Positions 759 to 63,748 of a DNA stretch of 64,000 nucleotides are shown here, piece by piece (position 1 is the first letter of the stretch; each line of letters opens with the position of its first letter). Source of the stretch: Candidatus Lokiarchaeum ossiferum (lineage in GTDB: Archaea > Asgardarchaeota > Lokiarchaeia > Sigyniarchaeales > Promethearchaeaceae). The notes beneath the pieces were generated by a model. That model saw only the letters and a program-made list of their open reading frames with translations. It searched no databases and was not told the origin of the DNA. The position numbers and the translations under genes are program-made. The stretch is from contig CP104013.1 in NCBI GenBank assembly GCA_025839675.1, forward strand, positions 3,105,121-3,169,120, written 5' to 3'.

Positions 759-1985
759 TTATGCATATAGAGTAAATCTATCATGAGTCTTTTTTGATCC
801 TTTAACAACTTTTGTTATTGCTTTTTTGAAATCGGTCACAAGAATTGTGTCAGATTCCCTACGGATTGCAAACATTCCAGCTTCCATTACAATTGCTTTA
901 ATTTCCGCACCAGTTGCCCCCTCAGTAGCAGATAAAAATTGTTTGAAATTCTGAGCTTTTTTCTCAATATTCATATTTCTAGTGTGGATATGAAAGATTT
1001 GGAGTCTAGCGTCTTCATTGGGAGGAGGAAACTCGATCAATCGATCAAATCTACCTGGTCTCAATAAAGCAGGATCCAATATATCTGGACGATTAGTAGC
1101 ACCAATTATACGAACATCACCCCTATTATTAAAACCATCAAGTTCGCTAAGAAGTTGCATTAAGGTTCTTTGAACTTCTCTATCACCAGAGGTTGCAACT
1201 TGTAGTCTTTTTGAACCAATCGCATCAAGTTCATCAATGAAAATTATGGCTGGTGTTTTCTGGCGAGCCATATCAAACAACTCACGTACCATTCGAGCAC
1301 CTTCTCCGATAAATTTTTGAACTAATTCACTACCAATAATTCTGATGAAAGTCGCATTAGTTGCATTTGCTACTGCTTTTGCGATCATTGTTTTTCCAGT
1401 TCCAGGACTTCCAAACAATAAAATTCCTTTTGGAGGGGAGACTCCAACTTTTTTGAATATTTCTGGTTTTAATAAAGGAAGCTCCACCGTTTCTCGAACT
1501 TCTTGCAATTGATCTTCTAATCCACCAATATCATCATAAGTGTATTCTGATGGTTTTTCTTCAATTTCCATTACTTGCACCATAGGATCAACTACACTTG
1601 GCAGACGTTCCATTACTGAAAAAGTTCTTTGATTTAATGCAACACGATCGTTTACTTTCAAAGTCTCAAAATCTACTTTGCGAGCAATATTAACAATAAA
1701 AGAAGGTCCTGAACTTGATTTTACAACTGCACGCTTATCAGGAAGTAAATCAGTTAAATTTGCAGAAATCAAAGGAGGTTGACGTAGTCGATCTAATTCT
1801 TGCCTTAAATTTGCCAAATCTCTTTGACTTGATAGAAGTTCTCGCTCTAATTTTGACTTGGTGGATTCCAAATTTCTTAAACGTCGTTCCAAGTGTCTCG
1901 TATAAGTTATGAGGTAATTCGAATCTTTTTCTTTCTCAATTGGTATGTTTGAATCTTTATCCTTTTCAATAGCCATCCTTTTCAA
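759..1985 (-). CDS. pan: Proteasome-activating nucleotidase PAN (AAA+ ATPase)
   Basis: N-terminal coiled coil, Walker A GSPGTGKT, Walker B IIFIDELDA, AAA second region of homology; about 400 aa, typical for PAN. Confidence 0.9.
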   Translation of the reverse strand: MKRMAIEKDKDSNIPIEKEKDSNYLITYTRHLERRLRNLESTKSKLERELLSSQRDLANLRQELDRLRQPPLISANLTDLLPDKRAVVKSSSGPSFIVNIARKVDFETLKVNDRVALNQRTFSVMERLPSVVDPMVQVMEIEEKPSEYTYDDIGGLEDQLQEVRETVELPLLKPEIFKKVGVSPPKGILLFGSPGTGKTMIAKAVANATNATFIRIIGSELVQKFIGEGARMVRELFDMARQKTPAIIFIDELDAIGSKRLQVATSGDREVQRTLMQLLSELDGFNNRGDVRIIGATNRPDILDPALLRPGRFDRLIEFPPPNEDARLQIFHIHTRNMNIEKKAQNFKQFLSATEGATGAEIKAIVMEAGMFAIRRESDTILVTDFKKAITKVVKGSKKTHDRFTLYA

Positions 1986-2683
1986 CTCTATTGGAATTTT
2001 TCACTTTTCTCATGCATTTTTTTTGTTGTTCCTAATATGTCTAAGATAATCTGAGTTTATATAATTTCTTTTGGAAAAAATCTCAATCTTCTTGGAATAA
2101 AAAAGAATTATATCTTTTGTTTAAAATCTTTTTACTATTTGTTAGTTGAATTATTTTTGATGAACTAGAGGGATTTTTCTTGAGCTTTAAAATTTATGTA
2201 AAAATTAGATTTACGTGAGAAAAAAGGCTATCTCAGAAATAAACGCATAAAAAAAGATTGTGGGAAGTTCCACTTGAAATTCTTTTTAATGAAGAACAAT
2301 TAAAACAATTTTTTATTAAATTAACTTGTTCTCTTCTTTTCCGTGATGAAAACAACCTTCGAACAGTTGAGTTGCAACATTTTACATTATCAGTATGATT
2401 GTTACCTTACTAGATTTATGGCCAGAAGATAGTATTTTCATTTTAAGATCAAAAGGCAAATTGATGGAAACTGCAATTGCAAAATCATGCAAGAAGTTAT
2501 TTATAGTTGAACAAATAATGAGGTCGCACCTTTTATATAAGAAGTATATATAAGATTAGAATTGAAGAATGTTTGGATTAATAGAGGAAATCCTTATTAT
2601 TGATTTAAAGAAGATAAGAATTTATATTCCAAATTAATTAAGAATGGATTACTACGTTAGAAATATAATCTTCTAATCACATT

Positions 2684-2947
2684 CTAATAAGAAATAAATT
2701 CATACAACGAAATATTCTTTTTTTCGAGTCTATGAAATTGAGTTAATTCTTGTTCAGTAGTGATTATTTCATAATCACGAATTGAGAAATTATAGTCCAT
2801 TATAATAATAAATTGATGGGAACATACAGTTCCACTTTTGATAGGGAATTTAAGCAAGGAACCTGCATCAAAATTAAAAATATCATCTGAAAGAGTGATT
2901 CTCCGGGATTTAGAACAAACCGGACATATTATTCTAACTTTACGCAT
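2684..2947 (-). CDS. Small putative zinc-ribbon protein (hypothetical)
   Basis: 87-aa ORF with a CPVC...C.H cysteine pattern. Weak support, and it sits in an AT-rich intergenic region next to the rRNA. Confidence 0.2.
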   Translation of the reverse strand: MRKVRIICPVCSKSRRITLSDDIFNFDAGSLLKFPIKSGTVCSHQFIIIMDYNFSIRDYEIITTEQELTQFHRLEKKNISLYEFISY

Positions 2948-3139
2948 TTTTAGATCAATTATTTTTCAAAATTTTAATTTTAAATTTCTATATTTTTTAT
3001 CAATAAAAATATATGAACCAATATCAAAAGTAGTAAAATCAGCCCATGGCAAAGTCCTGTTGTACCAATTGTATTAGCTCTGTATGAAATCCGGTTCCTT
3101 GGCTGATTCAAAGCCAGGGTCCATATGTTCCTTTTCCAG

Positions 3140-6330
<3,191 letters not shown>

Positions 6331-48966: not shown

Positions 48967-51900
48967 TTAAACAATTTCAATCCAAAAAGCTTTTGTTCCA
49001 TGATAATCTATGGTGAAAGTCTTAGCAAATAAGTCGGTGTCCGAAGGAATAAATGTCTCAAATTTTAAAGAAAATGATTCTCCTTCTTCAAATTTTAATT
49101 GAGATTCAAATTTAAGAGTTATCGGCCCAACAGGAATTGTGGTCCAAGCACCATAGTTTCGATTATACTCATGATCATTCACCATTTCAATTTCCCAAGG
49201 ATTATTTGGTAATAACTCCTCAGTTATACCGATTTGTTCACGTTGAGAGTAATATTGAGATCTGGGATCAAAAGTAATCCCTGGATAATCTGTATTGAAT
49301 TCACCTAAGAATTTTCTGAAGCGAAGGATTTCTTTGCTAGGATCTTGCTCCAAAATAATCCTTTGATAAGCGTGAACAGAATTGGCATCTTCGTATTTGT
49401 ATCCTATTCCTTTAACGTTTCCCCAATATTCAATTCCAACTATCACATCTTCTTCAATATTAAGGATAGGATTTTTAACAGTGAATGAGACTTTTTCTAA
49501 TTCCCCTAATTCAACATCAATACCTGCACCTCCTGTATCTTTAGATCCAATAGAAACACCGGCTTTTAGTTCAATTTTTTTTGTAGAAAAAGATGTTAAA
49601 CCTGGTGTTATATCCCAATCCAAATTAATCCCATTTGGAGATGTTGGAATATAGATTCGATATTCTGGAATGACAATCTTTTCAGAAGATATCAAATCCA
49701 CCGAATTTTCAACTGCCTTTCCAAGTTTTATGTTATCCATATAGACTTGGAAGGAAGCATCATTAGTATTACTTGTATAGATTTCGAGTTCCGTTACATC
49801 CCACATTTCAGTGCTGGCACGAGGTTCATCAGCGATCTTCACACCATCAACCCAAGCTTGCCATTGATTATTATCCATATCCATTAGTAAATCGATTTTA
49901 TACATGCGATTTGATTCTGGCAAACAATAAATATCATCAGGACCAATATAACTGTTGCCATATACATCATTAGTGACCGAAAGAACGTTTTCTGGAAAAT
50001 CACCATAAGTTTGGTGCAAACTTAATCTAATATAATCTTCGTAGGAAACAATATCATTATCTTTGAAAATGATTGTAAAATCTGGAATGCCAGTGTATCC
50101 GATTTCAAATGTGAAAAGATATTTTCCATAATTATCCATTTCAATATCTTTACTAATTTTCACTTTTTTATTATTTAAAATTCCTCCAGTACTGGAATCT
50201 ACAAATTCTATAACCCTTCCATAATAATCAGTTATTGGAGAAATTATAACATTAACAGAACAATCTGTTCCTTCAGAAATAGTATAACCAGAAGGATTTG
50301 TTCCAATACCTGCATTCTCATAATTATCCGTAACAGGGTATCCAGCATCCTTTGGATTAGAAAAATACAACTTGATCTCGTCATCATCAGTAAACCCATC
50401 ACTATCAGTATCTTCTAATCCAGGATTCGTAGTAAGTTCATAATGCTCATATCCGTCATTATATGTATCACCATCAGAATCTGGATTTGTAGGATTAAGG
50501 TTCACATAACCTTCATATTCATAGATGCCAGTAGCTTCAGAGCTTAAATCATCTCGTACAAAATCTAATTCTTGCTTATCAGTCAATCCATCAAAATCTG
50601 AATCAATTTCTGAGGGATTAGAATAATATGTTTTGTAGAATTTTGGTCGAGAATTTGGATCTGAATAAATTAAATCATATCCAGTTACTTCTTCGCTATC
50701 AGTTAAACCATCTTCATCTTTATCTGCTAAAGCATTCAAAGGATTTGTATTGTATACTAAAACTTCATCTCCATCAGATATACCATCATTATCTGAATCA
50801 GAATCACTTGGAGATAAATCATCTAACCTAGAATAATGAGCTTCATAGTTTCCATCCCATATATTAAACCAATTATAAGAATATTCTTCATAATTGGACA
50901 AATCATCATTATCAGTATCCCTATCCACATTTGGAAGATGGAAATAGCTTCTGTATCCTTCAGAAGATACTCCTAACCCATCAATTCCAAAATTCATAGC
51001 ATCATATCCACTATGTGTGTACATCCCAAGCGAGTTGATGTAGGAATAAGAAAGAACTGGAATATCACTTCCCACTTTTTGACCATCAATCCAAGCATCA
51101 ACTTGATTATTGCTGAAATCTAATTCAATGTGAACTTGATACCATTGATTCAATTGATAATCAAGAATTGGAATCCAAGTTCCTGTATCTCGTCTAATTC
51201 CAAGATGACCACCCCAGATTGGCATGTAAAATGGTTGTCCTGATCCGTGAAAAGTTAGATATGCATATCCATTTGATGAAGGCGATGGAGAATACCACCA
51301 GAAGTCAATAGAATCACCATCCTGACTCATAGTATTAAAACTGACAGAAGCGGTTGGACTTGTTGTTGGTGTGTTTCCTTGGGCAAGATATAATGCATTG
51401 GGATGATTTTCAATATTTTTAATTGTTGCAGTTGCTGTTCCAGGATTATAAGTCCACTCTTGCCAATTTGTGGTTCCAATTATTTTGAAGCTTTCAATAT
51501 CGGGATGATTTGAAAATGCTTCATACCCTTGGGAGGAAACTCCTAAACTATCAAATCCAAAATTCATTTTTTGTTCAGTACCCTGTGTATACATGAAAAT
51601 ATTGTCAATTTCAGAATATGGAAGCACTGGAATATCTGATAGAGTTTTTATTCCATTTGCCCATAAATCCACTTCATTATTTGTGAAGTCAAATTCAACG
51701 TGCATATGATACCAGGTTGACCATTCAAAATTGAAATATTCCCATGCACTTGTATCCTTTCTTATTCCAAAATGATTTGACCATATTGGGAAGTAAAAGG
51801 GCCGTGAACTCCCATCTTGCAAGCAAATATATGCATAACCAATCGTATCGGAAGAAGGAGAATACCACCAAAAATCAATATAATCATTATCTTGATTCAC

Positions 51901-53325
51901 CGCAGGAAAAGACACAGCTACAGTTGGACTAGTTATTGAATTAACATGATCTTCTTGGGAAAGATAGAGAGAAGTCGGATGATCTCCAATATTCGTAATA
52001 GTAGCAACTTCCGTCCCAGATTGAATATTAAAATCATTCCATTCAATACTATTTTCAACAAAGAAGCTATCAATCGTATAATGATTATTATAAGCTATAT
52101 ACCCTTCAGAAGACACACCCAGAGCATCAAAGCCAAAATTGGTATCACCAAGATCACTGTGGATATACATATTGATGGAATTAATGAAGGAGTAATCTAG
52201 GACTGAAACATCAACAAGTGATTTTTCCCCATCAACCCATAAATCCACTTCATTATTCGTAAAATCAAATTCAACATGCACATGATACCACGTTGAATAA
52301 TCAAAATTGAAGTAGTTACTCCAGCTTCCAGAACTATCGCGAATTCCAAAGTGATTAGCCCATATAGGAAAGTAGAAGGGTTGTCCTGTATCTTGTTTAA
52401 ATGTAATATATGCGTACCCATCGGAACCAACTGAAGGCGAAAACCACCAAAAGTCAAGATAATCTTGATCGTCATTCAATGTATTGAAATTAATGGATGC
52501 TGATGGATTAGTGGTTACTGGATCTTCTTGAGATAAATAGAGTGCATTATAGCGGCCATCAATATCAGTCAATACCGCTAATTCTGAACCTTGAGATATA
52601 CTCCAGCGGTTCCAATCGATGCACTCACTTTGATCATATCCTATCCCACTACCATCCATAGGATTTAGAGGATTTAAATTATTGATATATTCCCATCCAT
52701 CAGGCATTCCATCTTGATCTGTATCCATATTGTTGGGATCTGTTCCCAAAGTATTCGTTTCGAGCCAATCATTTAACCCATCATTATCAGTATCATCAAC
52801 AAGATAAACGTAAATCGACTCAATTCTTTTTCCTGTTAAGTAAAAGCATTCTTCCCCATCAGCATATTCGGGAGAATCACCTAAGGATTGAATGTGTCCA
52901 CGATATCGGATTTGATATTTATACTCAGGACAGTTTACTAGTCGAATTGCAAATTTTTCAATCTGTAGTGCCTGTCCTCTTGTTCCAGCATAATTTCCAT
53001 CACTTATCCACTGTGTCCACCCATTTCCTTGAATATATACTTTGTATTCAATGTCACAATCAAATGTATTGTCTACAATACTTAATTGAATCCCTTCTAA
53101 TCTTTTTGCAATACCTTTATGACCAACCCATTGGTGGTCAGTTCCAACAATATCCCCATAGGATTGTTGATGAACCAAAACGGATAAAATTTGGCTACTA
53201 ACGTTTGGTACGTTCAACTCCCTTTGAGATTCTTCTTGATCCTCTGTAAATCCAAATTCTCCAGAATTGGATAGAGTTAGGCTAAGAAGAAGTAAAAATG
53301 CAATATATTTTTGTTGATTTTTCAT
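48967..53325 (-). CDS. Giant secreted or surface protein (1452 aa): signal peptide, thrombospondin type-3-like Ca-binding repeats, three tandem ~190-aa lectin/ConA-like repeats, C-terminal beta-rich domain
   Basis: N-terminus MKNQQKYIAFLLLLSLTLS is signal-like. Repeats DFWW(F/Y)SPS...GYAY...PFYFPIW.NHFGIR...WYH.H.EFDF.NNEVD occur three times (about nt 50913 to 52617). Asp-rich DxDxDG motifs are present (DTDNDGLNDWLE, DSDNDGISDGDE, DSDGDTYNDGYE, DTDSDGFTDDDE). Confidence 0.8.
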   Translation of the reverse strand: MKNQQKYIAFLLLLSLTLSNSGEFGFTEDQEESQRELNVPNVSSQILSVLVHQQSYGDIVGTDHQWVGHKGIAKRLEGIQLSIVDNTFDCDIEYKVYIQGNGWTQWISDGNYAGTRGQALQIEKFAIRLVNCPEYKYQIRYRGHIQSLGDSPEYADGEECFYLTGKRIESIYVYLVDDTDNDGLNDWLETNTLGTDPNNMDTDQDGMPDGWEYINNLNPLNPMDGSGIGYDQSECIDWNRWSISQGSELAVLTDIDGRYNALYLSQEDPVTTNPSASINFNTLNDDQDYLDFWWFSPSVGSDGYAYITFKQDTGQPFYFPIWANHFGIRDSSGSWSNYFNFDYSTWYHVHVEFDFTNNEVDLWVDGEKSLVDVSVLDYSFINSINMYIHSDLGDTNFGFDALGVSSEGYIAYNNHYTIDSFFVENSIEWNDFNIQSGTEVATITNIGDHPTSLYLSQEDHVNSITSPTVAVSFPAVNQDNDYIDFWWYSPSSDTIGYAYICLQDGSSRPFYFPIWSNHFGIRKDTSAWEYFNFEWSTWYHMHVEFDFTNNEVDLWANGIKTLSDIPVLPYSEIDNIFMYTQGTEQKMNFGFDSLGVSSQGYEAFSNHPDIESFKIIGTTNWQEWTYNPGTATATIKNIENHPNALYLAQGNTPTTSPTASVSFNTMSQDGDSIDFWWYSPSPSSNGYAYLTFHGSGQPFYMPIWGGHLGIRRDTGTWIPILDYQLNQWYQVHIELDFSNNQVDAWIDGQKVGSDIPVLSYSYINSLGMYTHSGYDAMNFGIDGLGVSSEGYRSYFHLPNVDRDTDNDDLSNYEEYSYNWFNIWDGNYEAHYSRLDDLSPSDSDSDNDGISDGDEVLVYNTNPLNALADKDEDGLTDSEEVTGYDLIYSDPNSRPKFYKTYYSNPSEIDSDFDGLTDKQELDFVRDDLSSEATGIYEYEGYVNLNPTNPDSDGDTYNDGYEHYELTTNPGLEDTDSDGFTDDDEIKLYFSNPKDAGYPVTDNYENAGIGTNPSGYTISEGTDCSVNVIISPITDYYGRVIEFVDSSTGGILNNKKVKISKDIEMDNYGKYLFTFEIGYTGIPDFTIIFKDNDIVSYEDYIRLSLHQTYGDFPENVLSVTNDVYGNSYIGPDDIYCLPESNRMYKIDLLMDMDNNQWQAWVDGVKIADEPRASTEMWDVTELEIYTSNTNDASFQVYMDNIKLGKAVENSVDLISSEKIVIPEYRIYIPTSPNGINLDWDITPGLTSFSTKKIELKAGVSIGSKDTGGAGIDVELGELEKVSFTVKNPILNIEEDVIVGIEYWGNVKGIGYKYEDANSVHAYQRIILEQDPSKEILRFRKFLGEFNTDYPGITFDPRSQYYSQREQIGITEELLPNNPWEIEMVNDHEYNRNYGAWTTIPVGPITLKFESQLKFEEGESFSLKFETFIPSDTDLFAKTFTIDYHGTKAFWIEIV

Positions 53326-53794: not shown

Positions 53795-56014
53795 TTACTT
53801 TAACTTCAGTTTAATATTGTCAATTAATTTTTCTTTGATAAATCCCTCTTCTCGAATTAATCGAAAATATTGCCCTTCCTCAAATTTAAACCCAAATTGA
53901 TCCCCACACTCCATGAAAACTTTGTGGCGCAATACCTTCCCAGGAAAATGTTTCCACTCTTCACCACTGGCAACTATTTCCTGTATTCGGTCTGAATATT
54001 TTGCAAACTGTTTGAGATAATACGGTTTATCTACAGATATATGACATTTTTCGCTGGTTAGTATATTCACAGTATTAAGAAAATTATCCAGCAATTCATT
54101 TTCCGATGTTGTACCACCCTTGATTCCCTCGATTATCGGTTTTATTAACTCTTTTTTTTCATCCTCCGAAAATACCTTTGGAAACTCCTCGAAAAAGAAT
54201 TTCAACTTCTTTGTCATCTTCATTGTCTCATCGATAGAAGTTTTGATTAGATTAGACACCTTTTCAAGGGTAATCTCTTCCTCTGAATCTGGATTGGATC
54301 TTTCAATAAGTTCTTTGAGTAGCTCAGGATTGAGGTATAAATTTTCGATTTCCCGCACTGGGAGTAGTACAATTTTATCTCGGATTTCTTTTGCCTTCTT
54401 ATTGCGAATTTCCTTATTACCTTCATCATTATCCAAAATAATGAGAAATTTGAAGTTTTTATTGGTAAAATTCTCTATCAACTGTGCATTTGCCCAATAA
54501 TGTAAATCTCGTTTGCCTCCTAACGGTTGTAGTATGATTCTTTGCTCTTCTAAAATTTCCGGAATTGCTTGTTTGAAAAACTCTACATCATCCTTTCCTT
54601 CCACCAATATCATCCCATTATTCATGAGATAATCTGAAGGTTTGATGCCTAAATCTTCAAAAACTTGTGGTATATTTTCTGCTTTTTCATTATATACATG
54701 AGTTATTTTATCACTTCGTTTTACCCTATGAATGCTCCATCCCTTTTTCATACTATCCAAGAAATATGGTGAATGAGTAGTAATTAAAACTTGAAATCGG
54801 CTCAAATTTTCCTCGATTATTGATAGGAGTATTTTTTGCAAATCAGGATGTATAAAAAGTTCCGGTTCTTCAATTAACAGCAATCCATTTTCTTTTGTTT
54901 CTAATATTGCAACTAAAATTGTTACCAATTGCTGAATCCCCTTCCCCAATTTGTCAAAAGTAAGTTTGTACTCTAAATCTTCTTCTAATACATAAGGAAT
55001 TGTCAAGGGATATTTCTCAATAGGAATGTTTGTTTCTGGGTAATAATCAATATTATAAAGAGAATAATCTGGTTGATGTAAAAAATTTTGATTGATCTCT
55101 TTAATATTAGGATACAATTTGCTCAGATAGTGGTTGAGTTTTTCTAATTTTTCTTTCTCATTTGTGTTATAGCTAAGAATTTTTAGTGGGACATTTTCTC
55201 CATCATATTCAAAATGAAAAGGCTTTGTAGAAGCCTCCACCTTATAGAATGGTAGGAATGAACGATCTTCAACTACCATATTCATCTTGGAATAGAAATC
55301 TATAATCGGTGATAAGAAAAAGTGCAATAAAGGATTGCTATGAACTCGTTTATCAAAAATGGATCTATTATTCAGAAGTTGATTGCCAGGATTCGGAAAT
55401 CCAGTATTGAAAATCGAATTTGGAAAAAAATGCCATTCAAATGAATTACTATTAGCAATGAGTTTTTTCCTTGGTTTGCTAAGTTCCATGTTTCTAATAG
55501 AATATTCATGTCCTACTGAAGTCCTATCCACAAAATTATAGGAAATCAGTCCATTTTTGAAAGTAACTCTTCTAATAAAAATTTCATAACTTGACCCAGG
55601 AGCTACTTCAAATTCATATACAATATTTTCAAATGCCTCCTCTAATAATATCGATTCCTCAGGGTTGAATCGATTATCTTTGAAAAATTTAAATAATTTT
55701 GGGTTTTTCAAGTAGTCTTTTGAATGTTCCCTAAATAGCCTTGATGCTTGATCACGAAAATATTCCAAAATCTTTGATCTATCAAATTTGAATTCTAAAT
55801 TTATCTTTACCGGATGCTTCTGGGAATTGAACTTAATCAATTTTTTATCTAAAAGCTTCCCCGACCTTATACTCTTTAAAATTTTAAATAAATTGCTTTT
55901 CCCTGAATTATTAGGTCCAATTATAACGCCTAAATCCCCAATATTCTCGAATACTTGGTGATCGAAACTTAGCAGATTGAATATTTCTATTCGATGCAAC
56001 CGCGAAATTGTCAT
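53795..56014 (-). CDS. OLD-family nuclease: N-terminal ABC-type ATPase plus C-terminal TOPRIM domain (class 1 OLD / Gabija GajA-like)
   Basis: Walker A GPNNSGKS, Walker B LLLIEEPELFIHP, H-loop ITTHSPYF. TOPRIM MILVEGKDDVEFF and ILDNDEGNKE (DxD). Confidence 0.8.
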   Translation of the reverse strand: MTISRLHRIEIFNLLSFDHQVFENIGDLGVIIGPNNSGKSNLFKILKSIRSGKLLDKKLIKFNSQKHPVKINLEFKFDRSKILEYFRDQASRLFREHSKDYLKNPKLFKFFKDNRFNPEESILLEEAFENIVYEFEVAPGSSYEIFIRRVTFKNGLISYNFVDRTSVGHEYSIRNMELSKPRKKLIANSNSFEWHFFPNSIFNTGFPNPGNQLLNNRSIFDKRVHSNPLLHFFLSPIIDFYSKMNMVVEDRSFLPFYKVEASTKPFHFEYDGENVPLKILSYNTNEKEKLEKLNHYLSKLYPNIKEINQNFLHQPDYSLYNIDYYPETNIPIEKYPLTIPYVLEEDLEYKLTFDKLGKGIQQLVTILVAILETKENGLLLIEEPELFIHPDLQKILLSIIEENLSRFQVLITTHSPYFLDSMKKGWSIHRVKRSDKITHVYNEKAENIPQVFEDLGIKPSDYLMNNGMILVEGKDDVEFFKQAIPEILEEQRIILQPLGGKRDLHYWANAQLIENFTNKNFKFLIILDNDEGNKEIRNKKAKEIRDKIVLLPVREIENLYLNPELLKELIERSNPDSEEEITLEKVSNLIKTSIDETMKMTKKLKFFFEEFPKVFSEDEKKELIKPIIEGIKGGTTSENELLDNFLNTVNILTSEKCHISVDKPYYLKQFAKYSDRIQEIVASGEEWKHFPGKVLRHKVFMECGDQFGFKFEEGQYFRLIREEGFIKEKLIDNIKLKLK

Positions 56015-56114: not shown

Positions 56115-56420
56115 TCAATATCCATATTTTTGCATGATATCAGTAATATCTCTTCCATAGTATTTCACGTAGGCCACAATTCGCCCATAGGTATCAATCG
56201 CCACTTGTTTAATGGTAACCAAAGATCCTACAGGTATTAAAGAGGATAATATTCTTTTTGCTTTGAAATAACCAGATTCTCCCTTTTCAGGTGTGTTAAT
56301 ATTAGCAATTCGAACATATTTATTACCCGTTATAATGAAAGTATCTCCATCTACAATCGCAGCTACTTTTTTTCGATATATATTTGATGTTGGGTATTTC
56401 TTCGAAATTGAAGATGTCAT
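56115..56420 (-). CDS. Staphylococcal-nuclease (SNase/thermonuclease)-like protein, short form
   Basis: VDGDTF...VRIANINTPE...YGRIVAYV follows the SNase OB-fold motifs. Overlaps the upstream gene by 4 nt (ATGA). Confidence 0.6.
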   Translation of the reverse strand: MTSSISKKYPTSNIYRKKVAAIVDGDTFIITGNKYVRIANINTPEKGESGYFKAKRILSSLIPVGSLVTIKQVAIDTYGRIVAYVKYYGRDITDIMQKYGY

Positions 56421-57049
56421 ATTTTATCACCTCCATCCAAACTCCTAAGATATGTTTTAAATTGATTTTCTGAAAGCGCAAAGCAGTTATTAGAATTGTG
56501 ATACTTGTTAATATCTAGCAACCGCTCGTCAGTATAAAAGGAACCACTGCAAATGGCATAAAACTGCCCAGATTCATTTGATTCCGAATTTTCAAACAAG
56601 CGAACAATATTTTGCATCCTACTTGATTGAGAACCTCCACTCCCATCTGAATGAAATCGAACAAAATAGGACCTCTTTCCTTTAATTTTACATGAAAGAT
56701 GAATTGAACTTGATTTTACATTCAATCGCTTTTTTGTGATCTTTCCGTCTGTAATGTAGAGTCTTGGAGTTCTCCAATGAGTGATCAAATTTGAAATAAA
56801 AGTCTGGTTGGTCAGATATTTCGTAAATTCCCTCAGATAAGTATTTCCTCGCTTCAAATTTAGGTCCTTACTTACGCATATTGCAGCGAATAATTTATCT
56901 TCAAGAAATTTCTGTTCTATATCCTTAATTGGAATTCCCGTACGGTCATGTAACCGGATAAGCTGTTTTACCTTATGGCCCTTCATAATTCTCTTCCGAA
57001 TTATGGAGATTTGCGTGGTGACGTCCTTTCTAATCTGAAATTGGTACAT
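56417..57049 (-). CDS. Hypothetical protein co-transcribed with the SNase-like and OLD nuclease genes
   Basis: 210-aa basic protein with no recognisable motif. Shows translational coupling (4-nt overlap) to the SNase-like gene. Confidence 0.4.
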   Translation of the reverse strand: MYQFQIRKDVTTQISIIRKRIMKGHKVKQLIRLHDRTGIPIKDIEQKFLEDKLFAAICVSKDLNLKRGNTYLREFTKYLTNQTFISNLITHWRTPRLYITDGKITKKRLNVKSSSIHLSCKIKGKRSYFVRFHSDGSGGSQSSRMQNIVRLFENSESNESGQFYAICSGSFYTDERLLDINKYHNSNNCFALSENQFKTYLRSLDGGDKI

Positions 57050-57288: not shown

Positions 57289-58161
57289 GTGAATATTTTT
57301 AATATTTCACTCGTACTGTTAATATTGTTAGTGAAAAAAAAAATGAATTCCTTAGATTTAGTTGAAGAACGAAATATTTTAGTCGTTCCAATCGGTTTAG
57401 AAAATGAGCGGGTTGTTAAAAGCTGCCAAATTTACCCTGTGAACGTCATTTATCTCTTGAAGAGTAACTTTGAATCTAATTCTGATCATAAGGAAAAAAA
57501 CTCATCCCAATGGGGAATAGAACAATACTCAAAAACAATTGCATCTGAAGTCATTAAGAAATTTGAAAATACTTTTTTTGAAATTCAACCAAAAAATTGC
57601 CATCTCGGCTCCCTCCCGAGCACAATTTCTATTTTAAATGACATCTATGAAATTGAACAGAAAAAGGGAAAATTGAACAAAATTTACATCAATATCTCCA
57701 CCGCATCCAAATTATTCGCAATTGGGGCCTATATTTTTGCCTCTCAATTCCCCGATATATGCAAACTTTTCTATTTGGCCACAAATAATTATCTTCTCTT
57801 GGAACACTTGAAATCGGAAAAAGGGGATTTAGAAAAATTAAAAACGGAATTTAGAAAATTTGGTCTAACAAAAGGACCTTTCAAAGTTGTGAACATCCCA
57901 ATTCTGAAATCGGACCCTTTTTCAACCGATGAAAAACGATTGATCAATTATTTAGCCCAATTTGACCACATCAATTCGATAAAAGAAATATTGGAAAATC
58001 TCAAAAAGGATACCAACGCTAAAGAAAGAATGAATCTTCGCAGATCCCTTGAAAAACTCGAGAAAAACAATTTGCTGATACTAAAAAAAAGTGGAAAATC
58101 GGTTCAGGTTCTTATATCTGATGAATTGAAACAGCTCGCTGGCTCCTTTATACTGGAGTAG
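57289..58161 (+). CDS. Putative CARF-like (Rossmann) N-terminal domain plus C-terminal winged-helix regulator (Csa3-like architecture)
   Basis: ILVVPIGLENERVV (beta1 plus Gly loop) and NISTASK (a CARF dvTgGtK-like motif). C-terminal INYLAQFDHINSIKEILENL...NNLLILKKSGKSVQV resembles a wHTH. Confidence 0.3.
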   Translation: MNIFNISLVLLILLVKKKMNSLDLVEERNILVVPIGLENERVVKSCQIYPVNVIYLLKSNFESNSDHKEKNSSQWGIEQYSKTIASEVIKKFENTFFEIQPKNCHLGSLPSTISILNDIYEIEQKKGKLNKIYINISTASKLFAIGAYIFASQFPDICKLFYLATNNYLLLEHLKSEKGDLEKLKTEFRKFGLTKGPFKVVNIPILKSDPFSTDEKRLINYLAQFDHINSIKEILENLKKDTNAKERMNLRRSLEKLEKNNLLILKKSGKSVQVLISDELKQLAGSFILE

Positions 58162-58200: not shown

Positions 58201-59241
58201 TTAAAATAATATCGCAATCACAATCGCCAAAATGGACAGGACCAACTCAATGCGCCATTTCGAAGTTTCTTTCCTATATTTCCGTTTCTCCATTGCATTT
58301 TCAATTCCATCAATGAAATTCTTCAACTCTTCTACCACTTGATCTGGTTCTTGGTTCTGTTTCGAATTGAAATGATATATATACCATGTTTTAACCTTCC
58401 CAAAAATCGCTTTCCATTCGTGTAGCTTTTCCAGTGAAAATATTTCATCATGTAAATCAATCGATATTTCATTCAGCTCTTCCTTATCAAACCCGGTCCC
58501 ATAATATAACTCAATCCATTTTCCATTATTTTGCTTGATTGTTTCAACTATCTCTTCGGAAGGTATCTTTTGTGTAAAAATTTGTCGATATTCTTCAACA
58601 AGATCATTTTCTTTTTCATAAACCCTTAATAAGATAAGATTCTTCGCATTCTCCAAGTTATTAAAGCAAAAAGTGAAATAATTCCTAAAAACTGCACAGA
58701 TATTCACTAGTACGAATACTATAAGACTTATATAAACAAATAGTAGATAATGGTCTTGAGTTTTGATTACAGCATAGTATCCAAAGGCTATAGTGCCTAT
58801 ACTGATAAAAATACTGAAAAGCGTTGAAAAAAAGAGAATATTATGATTCTTATCCTTCCTTAAAAAACTGGTTGAATATTTCAAAATCTGTATTTCCCTT
58901 TCTATTGTTTGTTTTGTATCCTTCGTATTCTTCTTGTCGAAATAATCTAAAAAATCTGAGAGAAATTCATAATTTTTTTCAGTATCCTCGACATTATATG
59001 GTAGTTCTTTCTTTGAAATCCAATAAGAAATTAAAATCCTAAGAAAAATTATAATGACGAATGTCCAAATTATTAATCCTTGCTCGTTTTCATCGAAAGA
59101 TCCTAATATTAAGATCATGCAAAAAATAATTCCATTAATTATTCTGGTTCCTGGAATTTCTGACTTAAATGTGGAGACTTTTTCTTCATATTCCCCGAGA
59201 ATTTTCAAAATATCATTTTTATTTATCTTTTTTTGATTCAT
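58201..59241 (-). CDS. Multi-pass membrane protein (about 5 TM) with a cytoplasmic acidic domain; hypothetical
   Basis: Hydrophobic helices at about aa 33 to 53, 57 to 77, 131 to 151, 157 to 177 and 322 to 344. No catalytic motif recognised. Confidence 0.45.
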   Translation of the reverse strand: MNQKKINKNDILKILGEYEEKVSTFKSEIPGTRIINGIIFCMILILGSFDENEQGLIIWTFVIIIFLRILISYWISKKELPYNVEDTEKNYEFLSDFLDYFDKKNTKDTKQTIEREIQILKYSTSFLRKDKNHNILFFSTLFSIFISIGTIAFGYYAVIKTQDHYLLFVYISLIVFVLVNICAVFRNYFTFCFNNLENAKNLILLRVYEKENDLVEEYRQIFTQKIPSEEIVETIKQNNGKWIELYYGTGFDKEELNEISIDLHDEIFSLEKLHEWKAIFGKVKTWYIYHFNSKQNQEPDQVVEELKNFIDGIENAMEKRKYRKETSKWRIELVLSILAIVIAILF

Positions 59242-59737
59242 CTTATTAAATTAATTGGATTATTATGGATTTTAAGCCATTTATTAGGACTTTAATACAT
59301 TCCATCATTTCTCGATTTATATATGGATAATCAAATTTTTTGAAATCCATTAGAACCGAATGTGTGAGATTTTTTTTATTTTAAATGATTAAAATAGTTC
59401 TAATCAGTAATTTTAGAAAAAAGTCATGGAAACGACCAATTGACAATCAATCGCAAAGTAAATCAATCATGAATTTTAAGAAGAGGCTAAAAGCGCAAAT
59501 GGAAGACTAATAGACTTATAATTAAATGATAACCAATTTTTTTTTTTATTTTCGATTATTAAATGATTCTACTTATTTTTTTTAATCAAGATGGAAAGCA
59601 TGTGGGTGCACAATTTTTTAATCCAAATTTTTTTTTACAAATCTATAATTTTCATTAGTAAAATTGTGTCTATTAGTTTGATTTGAAACATAGGACTGAT
59701 TGATTTAAAATTTGATTCAAATACTTGGGTTTTTGAT

Positions 59738-60421
59738 ATGAAAAAAAAAATATTTGCATATTATCGGATTTCAACTGAGAAACAAAAAAAAAAGAATACT
59801 CAGGAAAATCAGAAAATTGCAATTTATAATTTTGTTGAAGGTTTAGACGTTGAAATTGTGAATGAATTTGAAGATTTGGGTATTTCAGGGGCAGATAATG
59901 ACCGCCCACAATTCAATCTAATGCTTTCTAAATTGAATGAAGTAGAAGGATTAGTAATCTATGATTTAGACCGATTAACGAGAGATTTTGAAATGGGAGT
60001 AAACTTAATGTTTATGTTGAAAAATTCAAAAAAATCTTTGTATATTGCTCGAACCAAAGATATCAAAGATTTTTCAGATGATTCCGAGCAATTAATGACC
60101 ATTATCAAATCATGGGTTTCTGCACTTGAACGAAAGAAAATTAAAGAAAGACAAAAAATAGGAATTCAACGATATAAAGAAACAAAAGGTCGTTGGGGTA
60201 GAAAGAAATCCTTTGGAAAATATAAAAATCCAGAACAATTTTGGAAAAACTATGATATCTATAGAGATTTGGGTATTTCCAAGACATCCTGTGCAAAATT
60301 ATTAGGTGTCTCTCGTTCAACGATGAATAGACGGATAGAAGAACGTGAAATAAATAAGTCGAAAATCAAAACTACCCCAATTAATAACAAAATCAAAGAA
60401 TGGAGCGAACCAAAACTTTAA
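59738..60421 (+). CDS. Small serine recombinase (resolvase/invertase type): catalytic domain plus C-terminal HTH
   Basis: IFAYYRISTEKQ (catalytic Ser motif), DRLTRD, C-terminal HTH ISKTSCAKLLGVSRSTMNRRIE. Confidence 0.8.
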   Translation: MKKKIFAYYRISTEKQKKKNTQENQKIAIYNFVEGLDVEIVNEFEDLGISGADNDRPQFNLMLSKLNEVEGLVIYDLDRLTRDFEMGVNLMFMLKNSKKSLYIARTKDIKDFSDDSEQLMTIIKSWVSALERKKIKERQKIGIQRYKETKGRWGRKKSFGKYKNPEQFWKNYDIYRDLGISKTSCAKLLGVSRSTMNRRIEEREINKSKIKTTPINNKIKEWSEPKL

Positions 60422-60688
60422 AGGAAGTTTTTTTTATAAATTACTCTAATAATCGCTATATCGAAGAATCGAAGAAAAATTGAAATGTTAACGGTAAATT
60501 GAGCTTCCAGAGTGGCTTTTTCTAATTTCTGTCGGCTAATTTTTAAAGTAAAAGGATGAATAACACCTAAGCCCACCGGCCAAGGTGTTATAGAAGAAAG
60601 CCCACCGGCCATCTCCATGTTATTAATCTTCAAGAAAGTATTTAAAGATCACCATACATGTTTTTTATAGGTTTATTTAAAATCAAAA

Positions 60689-61477
60689 ATGATTAGAATG
60701 ATTATTGCATATCTTGACGAAACTGGAGATCCTGTCTATCGAAGGGGTGGCCCTAAATGGTTTGGTATAACTGCCGCAATCTTTCATGATTCAAAATTAC
60801 TTGATGGAATAAATGTGATGAAGTCATTCAATCAAAGTAAATCCGAAGAATATGACTGTGATTTTGAAATACATGCAAGGGAATTTTCCAGCTCGAAAAA
60901 AGAACCTTATAATGCAATGAAAGTTGAAGAAAAAATAGAATTATTTACAGAATGCTTACATACTGTCAAAAATACTGGTGCTTCAATTTGCGGTGTGTTT
61001 GTTGATAAAGTTAAGCATAGTTATTGGCATGGTAAATATGATTTTTTAAAAAATGTAGTTATGAACCTATTTGAAAGGATAGGTAGATATCAGATTGCAA
61101 ATTATCCTAATGAAGCCATTCTGATATTATATGACCAACCTTCTGCCCATTTAAGACCAATTATTAAACAATATTTCAAAGAAAGATTAGAAGTCGGTTC
61201 AAGATATGTCAAACCTGCGTTTTTCTTGAAAGAAATCTTATATGTTGAATCTAAATTTCATCAACCTATTCAAATAGCAGATTTAACAGGATATATTGTA
61301 AGAAGATTGATAGAAAAACGTATAGATGGTACATTTTCCAGTTTTCTAAAGTATGTTGATGACTTGTATAAAATAATTCGACCAATGTTAGATTTCAATC
61401 CAACAACAAAAGAAATATATGGGGCAGGAATTAAAATTATTGAAAGTAATGACAGGAAATATTATGGACGTTTCTGA
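60689..61477 (+). CDS. DUF3800-family protein
   Basis: Hallmark N-terminal IAYLDETGD and C-terminal PIQIADLTGYIV motifs of DUF3800. Confidence 0.7.
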   Translation: MIRMIIAYLDETGDPVYRRGGPKWFGITAAIFHDSKLLDGINVMKSFNQSKSEEYDCDFEIHAREFSSSKKEPYNAMKVEEKIELFTECLHTVKNTGASICGVFVDKVKHSYWHGKYDFLKNVVMNLFERIGRYQIANYPNEAILILYDQPSAHLRPIIKQYFKERLEVGSRYVKPAFFLKEILYVESKFHQPIQIADLTGYIVRRLIEKRIDGTFSSFLKYVDDLYKIIRPMLDFNPTTKEIYGAGIKIIESNDRKYYGRF

Positions 61478-61513
61478 ACAGAGTGTTTGCTTAACCAAAT
61501 ATGAAAATACCTT

Positions 61514-61870
61514 TTATGGATCCAAAAATTTTCTTTTTCGGTTATTTGCCGTTATTTTCTTATAATTCTCAGTAGTTTCTCTTACGTTATCTATTCCAGT
61601 ATCAATTAAGATTTGTTCAAATTTGCTACTTAAATTTTTGAATTTTATTGCATTATCAGCATAAGAATCAATATATTCATCAGGTTTTTTTTCAGGTTCT
61701 TTATTAAGGAATTTTAATAAGGAATATGATTTTGCCCCATGTTCAGCAGACAATTGGGCTTTGTGGTCGAGTTCTTCATATTTATCATAAGTAGCCGCAA
61801 AAATTGCATATAATTCAATTAAATCTAAAGGAATATTTAAAATTGGCATTTCATCTTCTTCAAAAGACAT
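61514..61870 (-). CDS. Hypothetical acidic protein
   Basis: 118-aa ORF convergent with the DUF3800 gene; no motif recognised. Confidence 0.35.
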   Translation of the reverse strand: MSFEEDEMPILNIPLDLIELYAIFAATYDKYEELDHKAQLSAEHGAKSYSLLKFLNKEPEKKPDEYIDSYADNAIKFKNLSSKFEQILIDTGIDNVRETTENYKKITANNRKRKFLDP

Positions 61871-62036
61871 AATTGCATTAAAAAAATAACGGATAAAAAG
61901 TTTAGTTCTTTTTTTCGGTTCCGATTATCTGGTATACGGTTCCGAACCCTTTAGAAATAGTTAATTTGTCATCCTTCTTCAGAAAATATCTACTAATGTC
62001 GGTTCCGAATTGATTTTGCTAATAAATGGGACCGAA

Positions 62037-62063
62037 ATTAGCGAGATTAGCGAGATTAGCGAG
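62037..62063. repeat. Perfect tandem repeat 3 x ATTAGCGAG (9-mer), next to four copies of a GG(T/A)(T)CCGA(A)TT motif at 61916 to 62036
   Basis: Read directly: attagcgag attagcgag attagcgag. The upstream tcggttccgaatt motif occurs twice, plus ggttccgattat and gggaccgaaatt. Confidence 0.8.
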
Positions 62064-63052
62064 TATTTCAGACAATAAGGTGATTTCATCACCCCACGTG
62101 ATATTTTTTCTTGGATTGATTCTAAGAATCGCAAATATGGACAGAAAATAGAAAAAACCCCTATTGGGTGATATGTTCAGTTTTCAAGCAAATCCCTTCC
62201 GCCGCGACACTTTCCTTTTTATCCTAAAAATCGAGAAGAGCTTAATTCTATTAACAAGAATTTAATTTCGAGCGTAAAGTCTGTTTAAATTCCTCAAATT
62301 TTTCGGTTACTCATTTTTTGCCAATTATTTCTCTTTTATTTAAAAAATAAACTTGATTGCTCAATTTATTATGCCATTTTAGAATAAGTATAAATGATAT
62401 TTATATCTACATATAAACTGAATTTATACATATCTATATATTATGTTTATTATTGAATGAAATTGGATAATTATATAAGACTTAATTTAATTATAATATA
62501 TTAGAGACGATTAATTTTTCTGACTCTTTTCTAGGTGAATATAAATGTTAAAAAAAGAAAAAAAATTGCAAAGAAAGAAGCTCAGTGCATTTAAAAATAT
62601 TAAAGAACTTCTAAAACGAATACTAGCTTATATCGTGTTAAAAAAACTGATTTCCATAATAGAATTGGTTTTGCTTTAAACCATTTGTGTGAGTTTTTTT
62701 TTTTTTTTTTTTAATAATTTTTTCTAAATTTTTATTTCTGTCTTAAAAAATTAAAGTGAATTGCTACATTATTGGCTATACCAGTGTTTTATCATAAGAA
62801 TCCACTATGTCGACTCAATCATATCCTAATTTTCCTAAAATTTGACCCAAAAGCATTTTATCAAATCTAAAGTATTTCAAAATGATTATGCTATTCATAT
62901 TGACCAAAATCAAATCCCCTTCAGTTTTATAATCGAGCTTGAATTTGATAATCAATATATGACACATGTTGGATAATCTGAGATTTGAACAAATTTGTAG
63001 TTACATATTGCTTGTGATTAATGATTGTTGGGACCAAGTAACTTTTACAATA

Positions 63053-63083
63053 GAAAGAGGAAATGGCACAGGTGACATGGACC
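63053..63083. repeat. Imperfect direct-repeat copy of the tRNA-Asn 3' end plus flank (partner at 48758 to 48793); candidate att-like boundary
   Basis: GAAAGAGGAAATGGCACAGGTGACATGGACC versus GAAAGAG-AAATGGCGCAGGTGTCAGGGATCGAACC at 48758; about 26 of 29 aligned positions match, same orientation. Confidence 0.45.
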
Positions 63084-63217
63084 TAACTCGCTGATTACAC
63101 TATATCTATACGTAGACGTTTCATTTTCAAAAATAATTTGTAGGACGAATCCATCATTTCATGCATTGACTCCCTTAATCAAAACTATAAATACACATCC
63201 TAACAATTACCTATTAG

Positions 63218-63748
63218 GTGTTTGAAATTCCGAAAGATGATCTCAATCAAGAAAAAGTCGACTACTTAAAAACCGTCTTCTCCCACAATCGCAGTATGAT
63301 CCAACTTGCAGACAACAAAGCCAGCATTTTAATCCGAATTATTGTAGTTATCCTCCCAATTATTTTTGGAATCGATTCCTACTTAACTACAATTACTCTC
63401 CATAATAGCCTAAAAACCTTTCAATATGTTAGCTTTATCATTTGTATGGTTACCTTCATCATTTCATTCTTCTTATCGACAGGTGTTCTAATGGCTCGAT
63501 TTGCTGAATATGATGATCATATCTTCTTTTCAAATATTGAAAAAGATTCCCTTGAAGATTATCAAAATATTATTGAAGAAATGGATGATTATGTCATTTT
63601 TGAAGATTATATCAAAGAAAATTATGCAATTGCCAAAATCAATAAAAAAAAGTATCAATGCTACAATATTTCCTTTTGGTTCCTTAATGCTGCGGTACTT
63701 TTATTGGTAATTCGATATATCTTATTGTTTACTTACCTTTTTTATTAA
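63218..63748 (+). CDS. Small membrane protein with 3 predicted TM helices and an acidic central loop (hypothetical; possible effector-like)
   Basis: Hydrophobic helices at about aa 36 to 58 and 68 to 92, and a C-terminal one at about 150 to 172. N-terminal MIQLADNKAS motif. Confidence 0.45.
   Translation: MFEIPKDDLNQEKVDYLKTVFSHNRSMIQLADNKASILIRIIVVILPIIFGIDSYLTTITLHNSLKTFQYVSFIICMVTFIISFFLSTGVLMARFAEYDDHIFFSNIEKDSLEDYQNIIEEMDDYVIFEDYIKENYAIAKINKKKYQCYNISFWFLNAAVLLLVIRYILLFTYLFY

Follow-up and report, generated by a model that had tools for sequence, protein, structure and literature searches.

A serine recombinase and a DUF3800 gene in a Lokiarchaeum defence island: probable chance neighbours from two movable units, one with a predicted twin-hairpin RNA

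The DNA considered here, called the window, is a 64-kb stretch of the genome of Candidatus Lokiarchaeum ossiferum (contig CP104013.1). Near its right end, the gene for a small serine recombinase (protein NEF87_002681) is followed on the same strand, after a spacer of 267 nt, by an open reading frame (ORF) for a protein of the DUF3800 family (NEF87_002683). The initial annotation proposed that the two genes together mark the region as mobile or phase-variable. Comparison with related loci suggests instead that they are chance neighbours, brought together from two separate movable units, and not partners. We propose that a recombinase cassette has taken up, as cargo, a DUF3800 module accompanied by its own cognate RNA, a reading to which we give about an even chance. 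The most interesting content of the region is the DUF3800-associated RNA element, a conserved structured element in the 267-nt spacer that the initial annotation missed; the recombinase cassette comes second.

The evidence on pairing is as follows. The neighborhoods of three DUF3800 relatives and at least 15 recombinase relatives were compared, and adjacency of the two genes was seen only in this organism's own sequence. The DUF3800 relative with 80% identity (loci L001–L003) lies between a metallophosphatase and ParA, in an island with TIR, NucS-like, and CARF-like genes. The relative with 57% identity (L004–L008) belongs to an element that also encodes a DUF87 ATPase and a tyrosine integrase, and the relative with 32% identity is on a short contig. 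No serine recombinase is found near any of these three. Likewise, no DUF3800 gene stands beside the recombinase relatives at 85% (L009), 75% (L010), 70% (L016), or about 50% identity (L012–L015 and L048–L052). That is, the adjacency is conserved in no relative of either gene. One might still suppose a true two-gene system specific to this strain, in which the nuclease aids recombination or the recombinase regulates the nuclease, since the genes share a strand, lie close together, and encode proteins that both act on nucleic acids. The restriction of the pair to a single organism speaks against such a system, as does the fact that each gene has its own conserved noncoding partner in its flank, and we consider it extremely improbable.

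For the DUF3800 gene, the noncoding partner is a pair of hairpins. The spacer contains two GC-rich copies of GCCCACCGGCC, against 0.07 expected. When the upstream regions of the DUF3800 relatives are aligned, the hairpin part is conserved, the 32% relative included, and the rest is not; the twin hairpin is upstream of DUF3800 in four of four sequence types. DNA homology between the window and L001 is limited to bp 60559–61468, a module of 0.92 kb that consists of the hairpins, a promoter region, and the ORF.

The two hairpin units are built alike when read on the minus strand. Each has an outer stem of 3–10 bp, the sequence of which differs by lineage, and a core containing an invariant U·U mismatch and an inner stem of G·U, G-C, Y-R, and C-G pairs, closed by a loop of 3–4 nt. 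The loops are the same within a locus and different between loci (GGUG/GGUG, AUCU/AUCU, and GCU/GCU). In a structure-guided alignment, 91% of the cells pair. Eight pairs show two-sided changes in this alignment, which comprises four sequence types and was fitted by hand to the structure, compared with 3.5 ± 1.3 in column shuffles (0 of 500 reaching that number) and 0–2 in slid controls. The strand is indicated by the wobble pairs: all 13 are G·U or U·G on the minus strand, antisense to DUF3800, where the plus strand would give A·C mismatches. Folding agrees with this choice, as RNAalifold gives −28.5 kcal/mol for the minus strand versus −17.7 kcal/mol for the plus strand, and the single-sequence fold of the minus strand has z = −4.4.

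Between the hairpins and the DUF3800 gene is a near-symmetric, TATA-like box, TATTTAAAG, conserved in sequence and in spacing at approximately 20–24 nt from the base of hairpin A (window, L001, L004, and L022). It could serve as a promoter that is shared or works in both directions. Beyond the second hairpin, the minus strand has T-rich tracts. Together, the box and the tracts would fit an RNA of about 70 nt transcribed divergently from DUF3800.

The same features might be explained by a cis-acting element, either a terminator or insulator that blocks read-through into a toxic gene, or paired palindromic operators for a dimeric regulator. The hairpins are about 22 nt from the TATA-like box and are followed by T-rich tracts, and the analogous hairpins of two distant loci, described below, are directly after a stop codon, the position of a terminator. 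Palindromic operators, too, show two-sided changes. However, archaeal termination needs oligo-T tracts, not conserved hairpins, and a DNA palindrome would not place all 13 asymmetric positions as G·U on one strand. The invariant U·U/G·U core, combined with loops that are identical within each locus and specific to it, persists across proteins only 32% identical and points to specific recognition. A cis-acting role is possible, though we think it doubtful, and we retain the RNA as the preferred reading of the twin hairpin.

Searches for the motif elsewhere gave the following. No Rfam model matches the twin hairpin at E ≤ 10 over bp 59200–63300, nor at E ≤ 1 in the related loci. A covariance model of the motif finds matches only at DUF3800 loci in 194 kb. 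A hairpin pattern scan gave no match in the viral and genome collections; its 25 matches in the metagenome collection were dismissed as chance, being of high GC, in coding repeats, and without DUF3800. Protein-guided locus searches of the metagenome and viral collections brought no further hairpin motif, and the search for homologs of P0027 returned only P0027 itself. In a public assembly of this organism, an ORF of 64–71 aa is called as a gene over the twin hairpins (bp 60418–60633, minus strand). To judge from a gap in the locus-tag numbering, it is probably NEF87_002682. Since no such ORF is called in the other lineages, this hypothetical gene between the recombinase and DUF3800 is most likely a spurious call.

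A different hairpin pair is found at two distant DUF3800 loci, of about 25% protein identity, where it lies directly after the stop codon (L053, 880–940; L054, 3798–3850). One of its hairpins is a short stem capped by a UAG triloop, the other a long composite stem (UGGC..GCCA); in L053, a U7 run is also present. These hairpins also pair better antisense to the gene and have no Rfam match, and the covariance model of the window's twin hairpin does not detect them. The two types are analogous, not demonstrably homologous, and the L053/L054 hairpins may be a second undescribed DUF3800-associated motif.

The protein encoded beside the twin hairpin matches the DUF3800 profile PF12686 (E = 5.6e-11; 43.8 bits, cut-off 21) over positions 1–148 of 149, in keeping with its initial assignment. 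The ORF as called extends over bp 60689–61477 of the plus strand (262 aa). Because homologs begin with MI[IL]AYLDETG, the ATG at bp 60698, giving 259 aa, is more likely to be the start; apart from this amendment, the ORF positions of the initial annotation, 59738–60421 and 60689–61477, are exact. Both motifs described for the family (PMC7736814) are present and intact, the DE motif as D7-E8 (LDETG) and the QxxD motif as Q192-I-A-D195, and residues D7, E57, H59, D146, Q192, and D195 are invariant in 61 relatives. In the literature, DUF3800 is described as a domain of RNase H fold that serves type VII retrons as their effector and accompanies some Cas12 and Cas13 loci as an accessory. A structure model built from 61 sequences gives the window protein a fold like that of type 2 RNase H, and its active site is complete; a first model, from three sequences and with a predicted local distance difference test (pLDDT) score of 49, was discarded. 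A search of PDB sequences with the DUF3800 profile returned nothing meaningful. A large protein database holds only three close relatives, to which an exhaustive HMMER search adds one at E = 2e-53, and no DUF3800 relative is present in the phage collection.

The recombinase belongs to the resolvase/invertase type. It matches the Pfam Resolvase profile PF00239 (E = 3.3e-28; 99 bits, cut-off 23) and PHROG 125, "DNA invertase" (1e-36). Aligned with the Tn3 resolvase, its YYRISTEKQ pairs with YARVSTSQQ, which puts S12 at the position of the catalytic serine; LDRLTRD pairs with LDRLGRD, and ALERKKIKER with AQAERRRILER, so that the Ser, Arg, Asp, and Glu catalytic positions are matched. The equivalents of D67, R68, and R71 and of E124 and R125 of γδ resolvase, the active-site Arg/Asp cluster, are present. 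Residues 176–202 align to the helix-turn-helix (HTH) of the Tn3 and γδ resolvases; the HTH_8 and Xre-like Pfam matches are weak and under their cut-offs. Thus, the Pfam match and the Tn3 alignment bear out the initial description of a 227-aa enzyme with a YYRISTEKQ motif and a C-terminal HTH. Y8, R10, S12, R56, R79, R82, and R138 are kept by 17 of 17 relatives, and the serine motif (Y8/R10/S12), whose conservation the initial annotation had left for alignment to decide, is invariant among them.

Solved enzymes of the family have low identity to the recombinase, with weak phmmer E-values of 3e-6 to 4e-4. Phage-encoded resolvases and invertases are at most 33% identical to it, and the phage collection contains distant bacterial ones only. 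An assignment to the IS607-family serine transposases was considered and rejected, as the HTH is C-terminal and not an N-terminal, MerR-like one, and with the NCBIfam IS607 model its score is 38.5 bits, the cut-off being 110. No TnpB-like ORF is near the recombinase in the ORF list or the Pfam scan of the window.

From a comparison of four Lokiarchaeia loci, we infer a small mobile element of cassette type, 2.1–2.5 kb in length, that has the recombinase as its backbone gene and the following layout. The recombinase is at one end, variable cargo is in the middle, and a conserved noncoding segment of about 0.3 kb, the R block, is at the other end. Besides the window, the loci are L009, an L. ossiferum locus like that of strain B36 and taken to represent this sister strain; L010; and L016, from Promethearchaeum sp. 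BLAST alignment of L009 with the window yields two blocks only, bp 59677–60404 and 61933–62201; the cargo and both flanks are unrelated. The first block ends 17 nt short of the recombinase stop codon. In the 61 nt 5′ of the recombinase start codon, where a palindrome, AAATTTGATTCAAAT, is located at about bp 59709–59723, a single position differs between the window and L009, and further left the sequences are unrelated. Between the two blocks, L009 carries a 330-aa ORF on the minus strand, unrelated to the window's cargo. The window's second cargo gene, a 118-aa ORF without a match in Pfam, PADLOC, NCBIfam, or PHROGs, sits where L009, L010, and L016 have a convergent cargo gene and is unrelated to those genes. 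L010 and L016 have 2.1 kb in common at 83% identity, a stretch that begins about 85 nt 5′ of the recombinase, includes a convergent DUF4062-LRR gene, and ends with the R block, after which they diverge.

The R block is 87% identical between the window and L009 overall and 97% identical over bp 62046–62201, where homology ends. The R blocks of all four loci align, and each has three copies of a short motif, which is CGGTTCCGA in the window and L009 and TTAG-N3-CTAA in L010 and L016. The half-sites co-vary with the recombinase lineage, TCGG..CCGA versus TTAG..CTAA. The three copies in the window are exact (bp 61916–24, 61937–45, and 62000–08), span 93 bp, and have no counterpart elsewhere in the 64 kb. 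It is tempting to propose that these near-palindromic repeats are binding or recombination sites of the recombinase, that is, res-like candidates. The R block also contains a hairpin (stem AUCA/UGAU) with a T-run, at bp 62079–62114, and it has no Rfam match. A short-read contig of the same organism breaks inside the R block, at bp 62159, and contigs with the P0014 relative of the recombinase end 25–38 nt past the recombinase stop codon in ten of ten cases; this is the pattern that repeats or structural variants give in assemblies.

Further features of the R block and the related loci deserve mention. At bp 62033–62063 of the R block, a 9-nt tandem repeat, CGAGATTAG, is present in 3.4 copies, and L009 has about one copy fewer; the copy number thus varies between strains within an otherwise conserved block. 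L010 has a second cluster of three repeats, of the CGGTTCCGAA type and so of the window-type motif, at positions 3300–3360, about 170 nt past the end of its element, in which the other motif type occurs. A further resolvase gene, divergent from the first, is present in L010 (357–977, minus strand), and tandem or nested elements may be the reason. A noncoding segment of 246 nt is 96% identical between L010 (4044–4289) and L016 (1260–1505). It lies to the right of the element in L010 and, inverted, to its left in L016, with a 48-nt partial copy on the other side of the L016 element (1373–1419 and 4849–4891). The GC content of this segment exceeds that of the DNA around it, and neither Rfam (E ≤ 1 or E ≤ 0.1 for the related loci) nor a tRNA search gives a match; it could be an unrecognised noncoding RNA gene or an integration target. 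As for tRNA genes as possible integration targets, none was found.

The initial annotation took the two genes together as marks of a mobile or phase-variable region. Mobility is in agreement with the defence-type neighborhood and with the occurrence of the recombinase and R block elsewhere with other flanks and cargo. For phase variation, the flanking invertase sites that were to be sought are not apparent: in a repeat search of 52–64 kb, within 12 kb, no hix/gix-like pair of inverted repeats rises above chance, as measured by shuffled controls, and the best matches between the element ends score 23 (direct) and 27 (inverted), below the shuffled mean of 28.7 ± 3.2. Since no inverted repeats mark an invertible segment, the phase-variable part of the claim is unsupported.

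The possibility that the recombinase is a DNA invertase, turning DUF3800 or neighboring defence genes on and off by flipping a nearby segment or promoter, was nonetheless weighed. The best PHROG and NCBIfam labels of the recombinase are "DNA invertase" and "Mpi master invertase family", the L010 and L016 elements are opposite in orientation relative to their common 246-nt flank segment, and the first R-block repeat of L009 is inverted relative to that of the window. For two orientations within a population, the contig breaks at bp 62159 and just past the recombinase stop codon of relatives are the sole hints, and indirect ones. However, the NCBIfam Mpi model scores 52 bits, far under its cut-off of 272, and the DUF3800 gene keeps its own conserved promoter region at loci without a recombinase. 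The remaining flanks of L010 and L016 do not match, so these loci do not differ by a simple inversion in place. Together with the want of an above-chance inverted repeat pair around the gene or between the element ends, these points make an invertase very unlikely.

A second alternative is that the recombinase is the resolvase or integrase of a far larger element, such as the defence island of strain B35 or an old plasmid or provirus, of which the cassette is the most conserved remnant and the DUF3800 gene an incidental passenger. Recombinase relatives at 47–52% identity do occur in virus- or plasmid-like gene arrays, one of them at the end of a 41-kb contig. The surroundings in the window also speak for such an element. 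The segment from 53.8 to 64 kb is packed with defence genes, with matches in Pfam and PADLOC to an OLD/AriAB-like ATPase, an SNase-like ORF, a CARF-like protein, and a PycTM effector (bp 63218–63748; PADLOC, 6e-22), and the right border of the island is beyond the window end, which is 250 nt downstream of the PycTM gene. According to a 2026 preprint on the sister strain, two Pycsar systems are clustered with Gabija in B35, B36 is without both, and the two strains differ in defence and mobilome content. By that account the island is strain-variable, and the placement of the region in a mobile context within a defence island is supported. Against a larger element, the homology that joins the window to L009, and L010 to L016, breaks off sharply, within some 60–85 nt 5′ of the recombinase on one side and where the R block ends on the other, with unrelated DNA beyond, and no replication, partition, or capsid genes adjoin the recombinase element in the window (Pfam and PHROGs). 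We regard the larger element as unlikely.

We therefore return to a small cassette that carries a captured DUF3800 module, for which the following mechanism is proposed. The recombinase would act on the R-block repeats to resolve, excise, or integrate its own cassette, not to invert a promoter. In strain B35, the cassette would have captured the self-contained 0.92-kb DUF3800 module as cargo. Within the module, a small RNA of about 70 nt would be transcribed divergently from DUF3800, on the antisense strand, and the twin-hairpin RNA would act as the cognate RNA of a dimeric DUF3800 nuclease; in the simplest arrangement, each subunit would have one hairpin. The RNA might restrain or direct the nuclease until infection perturbs the complex, as in a protein–RNA defence or addiction module. 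A bolder form of the proposal, to which we attach low confidence, is that DUF3800 and its antisense twin-hairpin RNA are a minimal protein–RNA immune or addiction module, in which the loops peculiar to each locus would match nuclease and RNA, and that the recombinase and R block are an undescribed archaeal cassette platform by which defence genes are taken up and reshuffled in Lokiarchaeia.

Several observations weigh against these proposals, in addition to the possible cis-acting role of the hairpins. The strand and the stable RNA are deduced from the wobble asymmetry, which amounts to about six independent positions in four sequence types. Pattern and profile scans of viral, genome, and metagenome collections add no copies of the hairpin motif. 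The recombinase element family is small, comprising the four Lokiarchaeia loci, with cargo that differs in only three ways. The R-block repeats, of 9–10 bp, are shorter than the subsites of classical resolvases, and the repeat finder reported them neither as inverted repeats nor as palindromes, so we use "res-like" tentatively. Local alignment, direct and inverted, reveals no repeat common to both element ends, and no empty site or excision product was recovered; mobility is accordingly deduced by comparing loci with one another, and no event of excision or insertion underlies it. In this AT-rich DNA, short-word BLAST between the element and the related loci is too noisy to locate crossover sites. 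The features discussed are collected in Table 1.

Table 1. Features of the recombinase element and the DUF3800 module in the window.
Feature	Position (bp)	Strand	Remarks
Left element edge and upstream region of the recombinase	59677–59737	+	L009 homology starts abruptly at 59677
Small serine recombinase, resolvase/invertase type	59738–60421	+	227 aa; N-terminal catalytic domain and C-terminal HTH
Predicted twin-hairpin RNA, about 70 nt	60545–60618	−	Divergent from DUF3800; transcript ends predicted
Hairpin A	60593–60616	−	
Hairpin B	60562–60589	−	
T-rich tail	60545–60561	−	
Near-symmetric TATA-like box, TATTTAAAG	60639–60647		Between hairpins and DUF3800 gene
DUF3800 protein, RNase HII/HIII-like nuclease fold (modelled)	60698–61477	+	D7, E8, E57, H59, D146, Q192, and D195 intact
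118-aa ORF, second cargo gene of the cassette	61514–61870	−	From ORF list
R block, conserved noncoding element end	61871–62201	+	Homology to L009, L010, and L016

The rest of the defence island and the window can be described briefly. At the left border of the island, bp 48967–53325 (minus strand) encode a protein of 1452 aa that contains ChW and TSP3-type repeats, and L009 has a comparable giant repeat protein near its recombinase locus (906–3602). The 1452-aa protein is followed by a 739-aa OLD-family ATPase with a DUF4435/Toprim-like C-terminus (bp 53795–56014, minus strand), whose best PADLOC match is AriAB of PARIS (3.5e-28). Adjoining the ATPase gene, at bp 56115–57049 (minus strand), a truncated, SNase-like ORF of 101 aa overlaps an uncharacterised ORF of 210 aa. 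The CARF-like protein, of the HFX_2341_N type, is encoded at bp 57289–58161 (plus strand), 2.5 kb from the DUF3800 module. It has a homolog in L001 (8704–9480; about 43% by tblastx), and in L001 and L003 the distance to the module is 3.2 kb; this proximity may be a coincidence of defence islands or a loose functional link. No ORF of the size of a Pycsar cyclase is found in the 1 kb upstream of the PycTM gene, where about 1 kb of AT-rich DNA has no ORF of more than 50 aa and contains a run of 19 T at bp 62694–62712. Far to the left is an archaeal large-subunit ribosomal RNA gene (bp 3137–6321, minus strand), with no small-subunit gene beside it; at 3185 nt, compared with a model of 2987 positions, it may contain insertions. 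There are no tRNA genes in the 64-kb window.

The significance of the region lies mainly in the DUF3800 module. DUF3800 has been linked to many unrelated structured RNAs since 2017 and recurs as an accessory of retrons and CRISPR, with no function known for the protein or the RNAs. The window offers a compact case, of 0.92 kb, with a simple RNA: two hairpins with an invariant core and variable, matched loops. The host is a cultured Asgard archaeon with two strain genomes and proteomes, so that direct tests are possible. If true, a protein–RNA module with locus-specific loops would explain why a dozen unrelated RNA motifs are linked to DUF3800. Independently of the module, the recombinase element offers another lead; it carries different defence-type genes in different Lokiarchaeia and may help to account for the small overlap, of two defence systems only, between two strains of the same species.

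Among known systems, the recombinase is like the Tn3 and γδ resolvases and the Hin and Gin invertases in its architecture and catalytic residues. A noncoding region with three short repeated sites recalls the res of Tn3, with its three dimer-binding subsites. Unlike res, the candidate sites of the cassette are not directly upstream of the gene but 1.5 kb downstream, with cargo in between, and they are only 9–10 bp long. Neither a DDE transposase nor terminal inverted repeats nor inverted crossover sites were found at the recombinase element in the ORF list, the Pfam scan, or the end alignment.

The DUF3800 module resembles type VII retrons (Mestre et al. 2020, PMC7736814) in joining a DUF3800 RNase H2-like domain to a structured noncoding RNA in a candidate defence module. 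No reverse transcriptase is encoded within 5 kb to the left or the 2.5 kb to the right that reach the window end, nor does a reverse transcriptase domain occur in 53.8–64 kb. The retron-linked DUF3800 proteins are without the Q of the QxxD motif (PMC7736814), whereas the window protein keeps Q192-x-x-D195.

With the type III toxin–antitoxin systems (ToxIN-like), the module has in common a short, tandemly duplicated, structured RNA beside a nuclease gene, an RNA sequence that is locus-specific, suggesting cognate pairing, and a compact, mobile, defence-associated setting. In contrast to those systems, its RNA is predicted on the opposite strand and not upstream on the same strand with a terminator, it has two hairpins where they have 2–6 pseudoknot repeats, and its protein is modelled with an RNase H fold and not the ToxN/Kid-like fold of theirs.

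The closest comparison is with the 11 unrelated RNA motifs that Weinberg et al. (2017; PMC5737381) found near DUF3800 genes and for which no function was proposed. These are DUF3800-I to DUF3800-XI, taken together with drum and skipping-rope (Rfam RF02969, RF02968, and others). Like them, the twin hairpin is noncoding, conserved, and structured, and it is closely linked to a DUF3800 gene. The described motifs occur on either side of the gene and in either orientation, often with a terminator-like tract after them, and do not behave as riboswitches of a 5′ untranslated region (PMC5737381). The window's element matches no Rfam 15 model even at E ≤ 10, and it is set apart by two tandem hairpins with a shared U·U/G·U core, by loops that are identical within a locus, and by its Asgard hosts. 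Distinguished in this way from the families deposited in Rfam, and from those only, the twin hairpin is a further example of the known but unexplained class of DUF3800-associated RNAs.

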